A DNA stretch of 48,666 nucleotides from a bacterium. GTDB lineage: Bacteria > Patescibacteriota > Minisyncoccia > Phycocordibacterales > Phycocordibacteraceae. The notes beneath the pieces are model-generated. The model searched no databases and was not told where the DNA came from. It was given only the letters and a program-made list of their open reading frames with translations. Location: the NCBI GenBank assembly GCA_021794425.1, contig JAJYQV010000038.1, forward strand, positions 1-48,666, in the 5' to 3' direction. Position numbers and translations under genes: made by a program. The number at the start of each line of letters is the position of its first letter. Positions within the stretch are counted from its first letter, which is position 1. Shown piece by piece: positions 3,165-7,204 of this stretch.

Positions 3165-4370
<1,206 letters not shown>

Positions 4371-4395: not shown

Positions 4396-4770
4396 ATGGA
4401 CACCCCCACGGAAACCAAGCCCAAGGCAAAGCGCGCGACGAAGAAAGACGCCGCCGTTCCGGCGGAGCACAAGCTTCGGATTCGCGTCCGCGCCTACGAG
4501 CATAAGATCCTCGATCTTTCGGTGAAGCAGATCATGGACACCGCAGCCCGCTTCGATGCCGTCGTCGTCGGCCCCGTGCCGCTCCCGACGGAGATCAAGC
4601 GCTGGACGGTGAACCGCTCGACCTTCGTCCACAAGGACGCGCGCGAGCAGTTCGAGATGCGCATCCATAAGCGCCTCATCGACATCCGGAACCCGTCGCC
4701 GAAGGTGATTGAGGCCCTCACGAACCTCAACCTGCCTTCCGGCGTTACGATCGACGTCAAGATGGTGTAG
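4396..4770 (+). CDS. rpsJ: 30S ribosomal protein S10 with a short Lys-rich N-terminal extension
   Basis: LRIRVRAYEHKILD...HKRLIDI. ATG 4396 was chosen because ORF start 4285 overlaps the tuf 3' end. Confidence 0.92.
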   Translation: MDTPTETKPKAKRATKKDAAVPAEHKLRIRVRAYEHKILDLSVKQIMDTAARFDAVVVGPVPLPTEIKRWTVNRSTFVHKDAREQFEMRIHKRLIDIRNPSPKVIEALTNLNLPSGVTIDVKMV

Positions 4771-4800
4771 CCCGAGCGAAGTCAAAGGCTCTCACTCAGA

Positions 4801-4836
4801 AACACGCAACCGCCCCGAAAGGGGCGGTTGCGTGTT
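4801..4836 (+). repeat. Terminator-like hairpin, copy 1 of a direct repeat (partner 5591-5625)
   Basis: aacacGcaaccgcccc gaaa ggggcggttgCgtgtt. 16-bp stem with GAAA loop. Confidence 0.8.
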
Positions 4837-4843
4837 ATATACT
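4833..4843 (+). promoter_or_regulatory. Extended -10 (TGtTATACT region) for the NYN gene, predicted near-leaderless
   Basis: tgttatatact. TATACT 4838-4843 lies 7 nt before ATG 4851. Confidence 0.4.
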
Positions 4844-4850
4844 GCATCAC

Positions 4851-5480
4851 ATGCGACGCTACGCTTTTATAGATGTTGCCAATACTAAAGGGTCGGCCAA
4901 TCTTCTCGGTTTCCAGATTGATCCACAGCGCCTTTATGACTATCTTTGCAACGAGAAGTGGTCATGCGGAGAAGTCTTTTGGTATGCGGGGCGTATCCGA
5001 AATGAAAAGAATGAGAAGGCCCGAGAGAAAATTGAGCGTATCGGCTACAAAATTCAGGACAAGGACACTCACTTTCACAAAAAACATGCGCATCTTGAGG
5101 GCGCTTGCCCGAAATGCGGCGAACCGGTTGTTCTGGATGGTCGGAACCACCGCATGCCGAAGGCAAACTGTGATGTCGAGTTAACGATAGACGCGCTTGA
5201 GAGGGCATCACCCGAGTCGGAGATATTGCTTTTTACCGGTGACGGTGACTTTCATTACCTCATTAAAAAGTTGGTGGAGAAGGGTTCGCGCGTCAGAGTA
5301 TTTTCTACCAACAAACAGGACTGGGATGGGTCGTATCGGTTCTCAACCAGAATCAAAGACTTGCTAAGCGAATATGAAAGGAGTGAGACGAGGAAAAAGG
5401 GAGAAGTTACGTTTACTGAACTCAATAACCTGCGTAATCGTATAGGGAAAGAAGATGGTAACGAGCAAGTTCAGGTATAA
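4851..5480 (+). CDS. NYN/LabA-like (PIN-related) ribonuclease-domain protein with a His/Cys knuckle insert
   Basis: 209 aa. Acidic motifs FIDVAN, NCDVELTID, FTGDGDF. Insert is HFHKKHAHLEGACPKCG...NC. Visibly AT-richer than its neighbours. Confidence 0.72.
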   Translation: MRRYAFIDVANTKGSANLLGFQIDPQRLYDYLCNEKWSCGEVFWYAGRIRNEKNEKAREKIERIGYKIQDKDTHFHKKHAHLEGACPKCGEPVVLDGRNHRMPKANCDVELTIDALERASPESEILLFTGDGDFHYLIKKLVEKGSRVRVFSTNKQDWDGSYRFSTRIKDLLSEYERSETRKKGEVTFTELNNLRNRIGKEDGNEQVQV

Positions 5481-5590
5481 ATTGAAGGGACCGCCACGAA
5501 GCGTGACGGTCCCGAGTGAACATTCATAGTATATCGCAGACGGTCGAAAATGCAACGTTATCCACACACTCTCCGGCGTGATGACCGACA

Positions 5591-5625
5591 AACACACAAC
5601 CGCCCCGAAAGGGGCGGTTGTGTGT
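5591..5625 (+). repeat. Terminator-like hairpin, copy 2 of the direct repeat
   Basis: aacacAcaaccgcccc gaaa ggggcggttgTgtgt. Same hairpin as 4801-4836, with a G:C to A:T compensatory change. Confidence 0.8.
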
Positions 5626-6466
5626 ATATGCTATTATTATCTTATGGAAAAACCGAATCGTTAAAAACGAACAGCATCCAGCTACAGCGGAGTATCCTGA
5701 AGGAATTCTTACAGAGAAGCCACCCGAGTCGTTGCCAGAACAAGATTTACAAGAGCAACAGCTCGGGAATTTATATGAACAACTTGAAAGAAAAAGTGAC
5801 ACCTTAAAGGGGTTCGAGAAGGATCAAAAGGGTCTCGCCGCAATACAAGAAAAACTTGGAATAGAAGCATCGAGTGACAAGGTCGGTAACAATGATCTCT
5901 CATTGGAAATTGAGGCAATAAAAGATAAAATCGCAAGATCAGAAAGAGAATTCTTGGAGCTACCTGAAAATCAAGAAGGGGGTATGGAAAGTACTCTCGA
6001 GGACTATCTTGACAGTGATGAATTCCTAGAATTGCGGAAAGAGATGGAAGAGTCTATTGAAGCCGCTCAAGAAAAATATATTGAGGAGAGCACTGACTTG
6101 ATGATGGCAAAATATAAAGACGAGTTTGATAGAGCGGAAAATGGAGAAAAAGCCGAGAAGCTTTTTAGAAAGAAGTTCCCAGTTTACCTCCGTGAAAATC
6201 TTACAACTTCTGAAAACGGAATTACTTTTGTCACCTTTAGGTTTAAGACCTTGAAAAGTGAGGGTGGCGAAGATGTCTTCTACGTCGAGAACATTGATAT
6301 CGTAAATAGAGAACCAGATCTACTTGAGGATTCAAGTGGTAAACCAAAAGAGGAATTTGATGAAATGCCTTCTTTCGATAAGAAAGTAGACCCTGCGCTT
6401 ATTGGCAAAAAGGAATCAGCAGAAGTGGCCGGGCTTGTTGGTAAAAGTCCAGAGGGAAGACCATAA
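5618..6466 (+). CDS. Hyper-acidic, coiled-coil-like hypothetical protein (start uncertain)
   Basis: 282-codon open frame, very Glu/Asp/Lys-rich and AT-rich. The only upstream start candidate is TTG 5618, inside the hairpin. The first in-frame ATG comes only after about 120 codons. Confidence 0.45.
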   Translation: MCVYAIIILWKNRIVKNEQHPATAEYPEGILTEKPPESLPEQDLQEQQLGNLYEQLERKSDTLKGFEKDQKGLAAIQEKLGIEASSDKVGNNDLSLEIEAIKDKIARSEREFLELPENQEGGMESTLEDYLDSDEFLELRKEMEESIEAAQEKYIEESTDLMMAKYKDEFDRAENGEKAEKLFRKKFPVYLRENLTTSENGITFVTFRFKTLKSEGGEDVFYVENIDIVNREPDLLEDSSGKPKEEFDEMPSFDKKVDPALIGKKESAEVAGLVGKSPEGRP

Positions 6467-6467
6467 A

Positions 6468-6496
6468 TTTGCATCTTTTCGGGGGTTCGTGTAGAG
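6468..6496 (+). promoter_or_regulatory. Predicted promoter for rplC-rplD-rplW-rplB
   Basis: TTGCAT (6468-6473), 17-nt spacer, TAGAGT (6491-6496). Confidence 0.45.
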
Positions 6497-6544
6497 TGCT
6501 TGAAACGCTACGTACCCCTCGGAACCCGGGGGAGACCAATGGCA

Positions 6545-6584
6545 GAACGCGCGATGCGTCTCTGCATCGCGCGTTTTGCTTTAC
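6545..6584 (+). promoter_or_regulatory. Leader hairpin with U-run (attenuator-like) 16 nt upstream of the rplC start
   Basis: 12-bp stem aacgcgcgatgc / gcatcgcgcgtt (6545-6556 / 6563-6574) followed by ttgctttaca. Confidence 0.45.
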
Positions 6585-6589
6585 ACCAC

Positions 6590-7204
6590 ATGAAATTCAT
6601 CCTCGCCACCAAAGAGAACATGACCCGCGTCTTCACGGATGATGGGCGTGCCTACGCAGGTACGGTCTTGAACGTTGCGTCGATGACGGTCACGCAGGTC
6701 AAGAGCGAGAGCACCAAAGACGGCTATACGGCTGTGCAGGTCGGTTCCGGCGAGCGCCGCACCAAGAACATCAGCAAGGCGGTCCTGGGCCACACCGGCG
6801 GCGCGGGCTACGCGACAATCCGCGAGTTCCGCGGCGCAGAGGGGCTCGAAGTGGGCGCGACGCTCGACGCGTCGGCGCTCGCGGTCGGTGACACGGTGCA
6901 GGTCTCGGGCCTGTCGAAAGGCAAAGGCTTCGCCGGCGTCGTGAAGCGCCATGGCTTCCATGGCGGCCCGAGGAGCCATGGCCAGAAGCACACGGAGCGC
7001 GCGCCGGGGTCGATCGGCGGCTCGGGCGGTCGCGCCGGCGGCCGTGTGGTGAAGGGCAAGAAGATGGCCGGCCGCATGGGTACCGATCGGGTCACCGTCA
7101 CCAATCTCAAGGTCCTCGCGGTCGATGCGAAGGAAGGGAAAGTGATCGTCTCGGGCGCAGTGCCCGGTCGCCGCGGAACGCTTCTTGAGGTAGTATCCGC
7201 ATAA
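6590..7204 (+). CDS. rplC: 50S ribosomal protein L3
   Basis: MKFILATKENMTRVF...FAGVVKRHGFHGGP. Internal ATG of ORF 6500-7204. Confidence 0.93.
   Translation: MKFILATKENMTRVFTDDGRAYAGTVLNVASMTVTQVKSESTKDGYTAVQVGSGERRTKNISKAVLGHTGGAGYATIREFRGAEGLEVGATLDASALAVGDTVQVSGLSKGKGFAGVVKRHGFHGGPRSHGQKHTERAPGSIGGSGGRAGGRVVKGKKMAGRMGTDRVTVTNLKVLAVDAKEGKVIVSGAVPGRRGTLLEVVSA

Follow-up and report, generated by a model that had tools for sequence, protein, structure and literature searches.

The txpA/RatA pair of Bacillus subtilis is a type I toxin-antitoxin system whose partners overlap at their 3' ends. SymE and RalR are nuclease-type exceptions among the type I toxins. The type III system ToxIN, which is linked to phage defence, consists of an endoribonuclease and an adjacent RNA partner; its ToxI is a tandem-repeat RNA lying upstream of the toxin gene on the same strand. 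In the bsrG/SR4 type I system, SR4 acts through RNase III-dependent decay (PMC3834814). The catalogue of the PIN superfamily lists cluster NYN.COG1432 as being of unknown function (PMC5499597). In this study, we analysed a 48,666-nt stretch of DNA, here called the window, from a bacterium of the Phycocordibacteraceae (Patescibacteriota; contig JAJYQV010000038.1 of assembly GCA_021794425.1). A LabA-type NYN nuclease gene (gene 1) and a gene for a very acidic protein (gene 2) are located in it between rpsJ and rplC. A preliminary description of this DNA, made from its letters without database searches, had paired these two genes. The element that is conserved with the NYN gene is, in the alignments described below, a module just past its stop codon (5479-5569), which the preliminary description had missed.

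Gene 1 (4851-5480, plus strand) encodes a 209-aa, PIN-like protein with an inserted CPxC beta-hairpin element. The protein matches the NYN profile PF01936 with 57 bits (cut-off 24.2), and PF01936 is present in all of its homologues. A word-indexed search gave 13 clusters of homologues, on which the invariance of residues was judged. D8, N11, D108, E110, D114, D131 and D133, which belong to the motifs FIDVAN, NCDVELTID and GDGDF, are invariant, and so are the cysteines C39, C86, C89 (the last two forming CPxC) and C107. The acidic residues of a NYN RNase that the preliminary description had read from the sequence are borne out by this result; of the His/Cys knuckle that it had also noted, the cysteines stand and the histidines do not, since the latter are not conserved. 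The AlphaFold2 model of the protein has a pLDDT of 83, and its top match in the PDB by Foldseek is the LabA-like protein 2qip (VPA0982 of Vibrio parahaemolyticus; E 6e-6; TM 0.57 normalised to the query and 0.72 normalised to the target). The protein resembles the LabA-like NYN proteins (PF01936, COG1432) in domain, acidic active-site residues and predicted fold, whereas the inserted two-strand CPxC element, two further invariant cysteines, a C-terminal helix and the antisense module at the 3' end set it apart from them. The dN/dS ratio between the window and locus L002, which has an 87% identical NYN protein, is 0.05 at a dS of 1.47, so the gene is, by this measure, under strong purifying selection and functional. 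Judged from these features, gene 1 is a genuine LabA-type NYN nuclease gene with an intact active site, and metal-dependent ribonuclease activity is predicted for its product. PADLOC gave only weak, domain-level matches to it (24 bits). In one related protein, P0016 (321 aa), the initial 34 residues of the NYN protein are followed by an FAD-dependent oxidoreductase (PF01266), which points either to a NYN cassette reduced by deletion to this remnant or to a chimeric contig.

The preliminary description had also proposed a near-leaderless start for gene 1, and this feature recurs in the family. In the window, a -10 box TATACT (4838-4843, plus strand) is read 7 nt before the NYN ATG, with no Shine-Dalgarno sequence. 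Of 64 distinct NYN loci, 32 have a -10 box 6-8 nt upstream of the ATG and one has a motif like a Shine-Dalgarno sequence. The NYN mRNA thus looks leaderless across the family, as far as promoter motifs can tell. The start found before the NYN gene of the window, TATATAC(A)GCATCATG, recurs at 30-210 of locus L023, where it precedes another short open reading frame (ORF) upstream of rplC.

A scan of metagenomes gave 80 further NYN loci, with 31-56% identity to gene 1, plus one copy on a phage-like contig with 24% identity. Just past the stop codon of almost every NYN locus, at protein identities of 24-58%, the same module is found: a hairpin (consensus GAAAACGCCACGAAGCGTGGCGTTTTC), GAATGA, AGTATA, 16-18 nt, AAGTCAA, a few bases, and then TGTGGATAA or TTATCCACA. 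Read on the minus strand, the module gives TTGACT, 16-18 nt and TATACT, which is a sigma-70 promoter aimed back at the NYN gene, and the DnaA-box 9-mer lies just upstream of its -35. In the window, the conserved hairpin directly follows the NYN stop codon (5487-5513); it is supported by covariation and is predicted to be both terminator and body of an antisense RNA. This putative small RNA of ~45 nt (5478-5521, minus strand), whose ends are placed from the position of the promoter and the terminator, would be composed of a short 5' tail, the hairpin and a U-rich tail. The convergent sigma-70-type promoter (5528-5555, minus strand) lies inside the covariance-model hit given below and has a -35 of TTGCAT (5555-5550), a 16-nt spacer and a -10 of TATACT (5533-5528). 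A perfect DnaA-box 9-mer, TTATCCACA (5558-5566, plus strand), is located 2 nt upstream of this -35 and has no second copy in the 48.7-kb window. A consensus box at the promoter is what marks a DnaA-regulated promoter, and an effect of DnaA is here predicted only.

The strand and the spacing of the module are conserved. A promoter score of at least 10 of 12.5 was reached on the minus strand in 45 of 74 distinct NYN loci and on the plus strand in nine, and the -10 is usually ~40-60 nt past the NYN stop. Both hexamers and the spacing of 16-18 nt are kept, but not the sequence of the spacer. In 36 of the 74 loci, a DnaA box in one or the other orientation, with one mismatch or none, precedes the -35 by no more than 30 nt; it is perfect in 20 loci, against ~0.01 loci expected by chance (a rough estimate, not the output of a tool). 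Across 58 loci, 84% of the cells of the hairpin alignment are paired and 71 double-sided changes were counted, against 21 +/- 3.5 in shuffles; controls in which the hairpin was slid were only 29-56% paired. The six bases past the stem contain a mean of 3.5 U on the antisense transcript and 1.0 on the other strand, and four or more U are found there in 33 of the 58 loci on the former and in none on the latter. Because the U-rich tail is present on the antisense transcript only, the hairpin is predicted to terminate the antisense RNA, and a terminator scan scored it as such on the minus strand. The NYN ORF runs into the hairpin at some loci, so the constraint on the latter is at the nucleotide level. 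A covariance model built from the 58 copies had a single hit in the window (5479-5569, 58 bits), and on 437 kb of other Patescibacteria loci it hit NYN-bearing loci only, plus one weak match. The latter (L037 6203-6299, minus strand, 29.9 bits, E 0.026) is beside rpsL, with no NYN gene detected nearby, and may be a remnant of the module. Rfam had no match to the module in the window or in ten other loci.

Two observations concern related layouts elsewhere. The phage-like copy (L187 900-4520, an IMG/VR contig classed as viral) has the 24%-identical NYN gene, the full module and a perfect DnaA box, and its neighbours are a DNA methyltransferase gene and an N-acetylmuramoyl-L-alanine amidase gene. 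Solitary PemK/MazF-like genes at L203 4634-5130 and L038 1992-2480, beside which no MazE-like gene was called, have a convergent promoter of the TTGACT/TATACT type ~50 nt past the stop codon. This suggests the same RNA-control layout in a second RNase family, although the regions downstream of the two genes do not match the NYN module model and were therefore kept apart from it.

The layout resembles that of type I systems with 3'-end overlap, such as bsrG/SR4 and txpA/RatA, in that the RNA of a convergent small-RNA gene, here a predicted one, is complementary to the 3' end of the mRNA and no protein antitoxin is present. It differs from these in that the putative toxin is a 209-aa nuclease and not a small membrane peptide, the RNA is ~45 nt as against ~180 nt for SR4, the antisense promoter has a DnaA box and the mRNA is predicted to be leaderless. 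Since the NYN mRNA would have no leader, blocking of a ribosome-binding site would be no option. VapBC, the type II system with a PIN-domain toxin, shares the PIN-like fold of the RNase and the sporadic occurrence on mobile cassettes. However, the NYN loci have no upstream antitoxin gene, overlapping ORFs or shared promoter, and the protein belongs to the NYN clade, not to the VapC clade. ToxIN likewise has an RNase gene with a neighbouring RNA gene; unlike ToxI, the RNA predicted here is a single hairpin, downstream of the nuclease gene and convergent with it. In the literature searched, no RNA-controlled layout has been described for this nuclease family, so it appears to be new there.

The DNA that carries the two genes is an insertion. 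Along the window, the order is tuf (3165-4370), rpsJ (4396-4770), the ORF of gene 1 (4851-5480), the ORF of gene 2 (5618-6466) and rplC (6590-7204). The anchors are rpsJ for ribosomal protein S10 (plus strand; PF00338, 115 bits) and rplC for ribosomal protein L3 (plus strand; PF00297, 74-84% identity in relatives). The G+C content is 0.60-0.65 in the flanks, 0.47-0.51 in gene 1 and 0.39-0.41 in gene 2. The spacing of rpsJ and rplC is ~1.8 kb in the window, but 174 nt in L025 (Candidatus Kaiserbacteria) and 166 nt in L027, whose S10 proteins are 97% identical to that of the window. Because these relatives with near-identical S10 keep the short gap, the 1.8 kb is an insertion, as the preliminary description had held. 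In the empty site of L025 and L027, the rpsJ stop codon is followed by a ~20-nt spacer, a long GC-rich hairpin with TTTTC, the sequence TTGCAT-17 nt-TAGAGT, a structured leader and rplC. Six assemblies share the insert, with its proteins 100% identical. The nearest L3 proteins are from Patescibacteria/Parcubacteria metagenome-assembled genomes, one of them a Candidatus Kaiserbacteria genome, and a look-up of proteins with exactly this S10 found no insert-free strain of the same population.

Hairpin 1 (4801-4836, plus strand; 16-bp stem, GAAA loop, -34.6 kcal/mol, z -9.2) precedes the NYN gene. Since the same hairpin with TTTTC directly precedes the rplC promoter in the empty sites, hairpin 1 is by this comparison the native rpsJ terminator, with its U-tract changed where the NYN -10 box starts. 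A second copy of this terminator, hairpin 2 (5592-5625, plus strand; -32.2 kcal/mol, z -7.9), lies between the two cassettes and differs from hairpin 1 by a compensatory G>A / C>T change. By alignment, it is preceded by a decayed, internally deleted duplicate of the last ~30 nt of rpsJ (5569-5591, plus strand), and L002 has a fuller copy of the rpsJ 3' end, stop codon included. An integron array bounded by attC sites was rejected, as the repeated hairpin is the native rpsJ terminator, is single in the empty sites and has its copy preceded by the rpsJ 3'-end duplicate. On the right, the insert ends at the rplC promoter TTGCAT-17 nt-TAGAGT (6469-6497, plus strand), which begins 3 nt past the gene 2 stop codon and is kept in 11 relatives, empty sites included. 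The insert is located, by these boundaries, between the rpsJ terminator and the conserved rplC promoter, outside any transcription unit; a position inside the ribosomal-protein operon, as first described, was an overstatement. The sequence TGCATC is found after hairpin 1 just before the NYN ATG (4838-4850) and also within the -35 of the rplC promoter (6469-6475), and in the empty site the hairpin is directly followed by TTCTTGCATC. TGCATC is possibly the microhomology used at the left junction.

The same gap has received other DNA. Homology-facilitated illegitimate recombination in natural transformation is established in Acinetobacter and Streptococcus; we know of no demonstration of it in Patescibacteria. 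The NYN loci resemble this process in having an end anchored on rpsJ, a microhomology join (ATCCACA in L132) and a duplicated target, all judged here from the junctions. In L132, L133 and L138, a NYN gene whose product is only 39% identical to that of the window is also located between rpsJ and rplC. In L132, TTATCCACA of the module is directly followed by the rpsJ 3' end and spacer in a second, nearly perfect copy of ~240 nt, which starts at the codons ATC CAC AAG, exactly at the DnaA box, and the junction in L133 is the same. The window and L002 share one junction, which is of a different kind. L132 and L133 are, by their junctions, a second and independent arrival at the same site, with homology on one side and microhomology on the other. 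Among 80 loci selected by L3, those of other Patescibacteria have in the gap genes for PemK/MazF, HicA with HicB, GIY-YIG, FtsJ-type methyltransferases, a group II intron reverse transcriptase and DUF7736 (L038 1992-2384, L040 2178-2688, L057 1743-2027, L055/L056/L067/L070, L050 689-1792 and L083 3410-3769). Patescibacteria are reported to be naturally competent and to exchange the tuf and ribosomal-protein regions (PMC12455944). From this and from the variety of its genes, we read the rpsJ-rplC gap as a recombination hot spot between very conserved anchors. The rpsJ-rplC adjacency is often broken in Patescibacteria. At L024 1-690 and L133 960-2500, partial copies of the rplC-promoter -35 and terminator hairpins stand between small unrelated genes upstream of rplC, which looks like repeated rounds of cassette insertion.

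The protein encoded by the body of gene 2 (5645-6466, plus strand) is acidic and helical, and its C-terminal beta-hairpin domain is conserved. When 1.84 billion representatives were searched exhaustively with a profile, its family came to 12 members, acidic and mostly ~230-300 aa long. The sole homologue in the word-indexed search was P0002 (48% identity over 82% of the length), and a scan of viral contigs found no relatives. As had been suspected from the sequence, gene 2 belongs to no recognised family: it has no match in Pfam, NCBIfam or PHROG, and in PADLOC its only match was to LmuA, which is not significant (E 0.14). The AlphaFold2 model, based on an alignment of two sequences, is poor (pLDDT 57) and shows long helices and the C-terminal beta-hairpin. 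The absence of a conventional start, also noted earlier, is explained by the homologues. By alignment with them, an ancestral ATG at 5644, 6 nt downstream of a -10-like TATTAT (5632-5637, plus strand), now reads MEKPNR and ends at a stop codon at 5662-5664, and the gene body is +1 out of frame with it. The homologues start at the aligned position with MEKPK (P0018) and MNEKPK (P0002). The simplest reading of the offset is a one-base insertion between 5647 and 5661, at the fifth or sixth codon, and as all six assemblies agree on it, it is real. Gene 2 has thus probably lost its function recently, or else only a shorter product of 160 aa is made, from the first in-frame ATG at codon 123 (M123; 5984). 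A start at TTG 5618 is unlikely, since this codon is buried in the 15-bp stem, in the 3' arm of hairpin 2, and would add a hydrophobic N-terminus without counterpart in the homologues. Neither a slippery nor an RF2-like context is present, so programmed +1 frameshifting is unsupported. A 24-nt direct repeat, CGCAAGCGAAGGGCTTTTGGTTTG (1-30 and 1100-1127), flanks the sole close homologue of gene 2 on its 1.1-kb contig, L001.

Downstream of gene 2, the rplC leader (6469-6589) begins with the conserved promoter, which is followed by a GCTACGTAC box, a small covarying hairpin and a long terminator-like hairpin with TTTTGCTTT. The latter, an attenuator-like hairpin (6542-6579, plus strand), has 15 predicted pairs, four of them with compensatory changes. 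The leader is common to 11 related genomes and is not in Rfam, and a Shine-Dalgarno sequence of rplC is not obvious. It is a candidate ribosomal-protein attenuator.

We are highly confident of the anatomy of the insert and its conservation, of the empty site, and of genes 1 and 2 being independent of each other. To account for them, we propose that the insert consists of two independent accessory cassettes and that these occupy, in a Kaiserbacteria-like Patescibacteria genome, the space from the rpsJ terminator to the rplC promoter. Cassette 1 (~4837-5566) would be self-contained: NYN would be translated from an mRNA that has no leader, and just past its stop codon would be a convergent gene for a small RNA, with the DnaA box, -35, -10 and terminator hairpin as its parts. 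The ~45-nt antisense RNA would be fully complementary to the NYN 3' untranslated region and would keep NYN low through duplex formation and RNase III-type decay or through interference, in the manner of type I toxin-antitoxin systems with overlapping 3' ends. Type I-like antisense decay is the most likely mode of action by analogy, because the layout is that of a nuclease gene without protein partner and with a convergent RNA gene complementary to the 3' end of its mRNA; in a possible variant, the small RNA would bind the NYN protein, as in type III systems. DnaA may tune the antisense promoter. NYN itself would be an RNase that arrests growth or acts against phages and is freed when the antisense RNA drops. 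Spread of the cassette would be passive: cells would take up the DNA and recombine it with the very conserved tuf-rpsJ and rplC flanks as anchors, which would leave the duplicated rpsJ 3' end and terminator. Cassette 2 (5626-6466) would be an unrelated, later cargo gene of a tiny acidic-protein family, frameshifted here. Production of the RNA, toxicity of NYN, binding of DnaA and the route of transfer are the steps that we infer, and with them included we give this explanation about an even chance of being right.

Several points weigh against it. The leaderless transcription start and the small RNA are predicted from consensus motifs only, and the recombination route is deduced from junction sequences alone. 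The antisense promoter of the window is weaker than those of most relatives (8 of 12 consensus matches), its U-tail is poorer (UUCAAUUUAU) and the DnaA box is missing or degenerate in about half of the loci. An RNA of ~45 nt that is mostly terminator hairpin would be unusual as an antitoxin. The norm for a type I toxin is a hydrophobic peptide of <60 aa, whereas NYN is a 209-aa soluble nuclease, and to our knowledge toxicity has not been demonstrated for any LabA-type NYN protein.

The preliminary description had taken the NYN gene and the acidic gene for a two-gene system, either toxin and immunity protein or nuclease and nucleic-acid mimic. The genes are indeed same-strand neighbours here and in the identical copies, the gene 2 protein is extremely acidic, and the homologue P0018, which in its visible context is preceded by a tRNA gene and closely followed by a PemK/MazF-like RNase toxin gene, could hint at a link between its family and RNases. 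Their co-occurrence, however, fails. The slot of gene 2 between NYN and rplC is occupied in L002 by an unrelated 146-aa gene and in L018, whose NYN is 80% identical, by a 69-aa ORF, neither product having a Pfam match. The NYN loci of P0009 and P0010 are without such a neighbour, and more distant NYN genes follow a RarA-like ATPase gene or are found elsewhere. Clustering of 250 neighbour ORFs from 78 distinct NYN loci gave no family in more than six loci and no recurrent partner, and no acidic neighbour is present at any other NYN locus examined. Between the ORFs of genes 1 and 2 there are 137 nt with the antisense module and the terminator copy, each gene has its own -10 box, and no co-transcription, overlap or coupling of the ORFs was found. 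Because slot 2 varies, no partner family is shared, the G+C content differs and a terminator copy stands between them, the two genes are, on this comparison, independent and gene 2 is a bystander. It is also frameshifted, while NYN is under strong purifying selection, and a functional pair seems to us highly improbable. That the module is just a bidirectional terminator with chance AT-rich similarity, and that no antisense RNA is made, is another view; AT-rich intergenic DNA often resembles the promoter consensus, and a simple scan did not score the window copy as a promoter. But even where synonymous sites are saturated, at protein identities of 24-58%, the loci keep the hexamers, their spacing and their distance from the stop codon. 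The strand asymmetry of promoter scores, the number of perfect DnaA boxes against the rough estimate for chance, and the specificity of the covariance model for NYN loci also speak against coincidence, which we regard as very unlikely.

Two further explanations accept the module and give NYN another role. In one, NYN and the module are a selfish mobile element, with NYN as its mobilising nuclease and the hairpin, AT-rich motifs and DnaA box as DNA sites of recombination, nicking or replication origin. The sporadic distribution in varied genomic contexts, two independent arrivals at rpsJ-rplC with duplicated target sequence each, the copy on a phage-like contig, and the likeness of a hairpin with a DnaA box to origins of small replicons would fit such an element. 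The motifs, however, fit a sigma-70 promoter in both hexamers, spacer length and free spacer sequence, and no element matching the 3' module is present at the 5' end of the cassette in the distinct NYN loci. The junctions differ between lineages and resemble homology and microhomology joins, not a fixed target, and NYN domains are known as RNases; we consider a selfish element unlikely. A homing endonuclease was rejected as well, since the NYN loci have no common target and their junctions differ. In the other, NYN is an accessory RNase without toxicity, one that might serve in the maturation or turnover of RNA, and its dose is trimmed by the cis-antisense RNA. Some bacterial NYN genes are reported to adjoin genes for the maturation of tRNA or rRNA (PMC5499597), purifying selection on the gene is strong, and the location beside ribosomal genes recurs. 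Yet the gene is patchy among close relatives, with empty sites, its G+C content is below that of the host, its contexts are unrelated and one copy is on a phage-like contig. The same gap also collects PemK, HicAB and GIY-YIG genes in other Patescibacteria, so the ribosomal neighbourhood would reflect a recombination hot spot and not function. An accessory RNase of this kind appears rather unlikely.

If the proposed control is true, loss of the cassette, shut-off of transcription or a change in the state of DnaA would free the nuclease, and a DnaA box on an antitoxin-type promoter would tie replication status to the nuclease switch. A broader reading, in which leaderless LabA-type NYN RNases with a ~45-nt convergent RNA and a DnaA-wired promoter form a widespread class of RNA-controlled toxin or abortive-infection cassettes in Patescibacteria and their phages, is tentative, and we would not yet expect it to hold. 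The rpsJ-rplC hot spot, where PemK, HicAB, GIY-YIG, methyltransferase and intron genes are gathered, matters for those who use the synteny of ribosomal genes in Patescibacteria genomes. There are thousands of bacterial LabA-type NYN proteins, all listed under unknown function, and the conserved antisense-RNA gene predicted beside one subfamily of them gives a testable handle on that function. Toxin-antitoxin and defence systems are said to be scarce in Patescibacteria, and a nuclease cassette under RNA control would be one more such system, invisible to protein-based searches.

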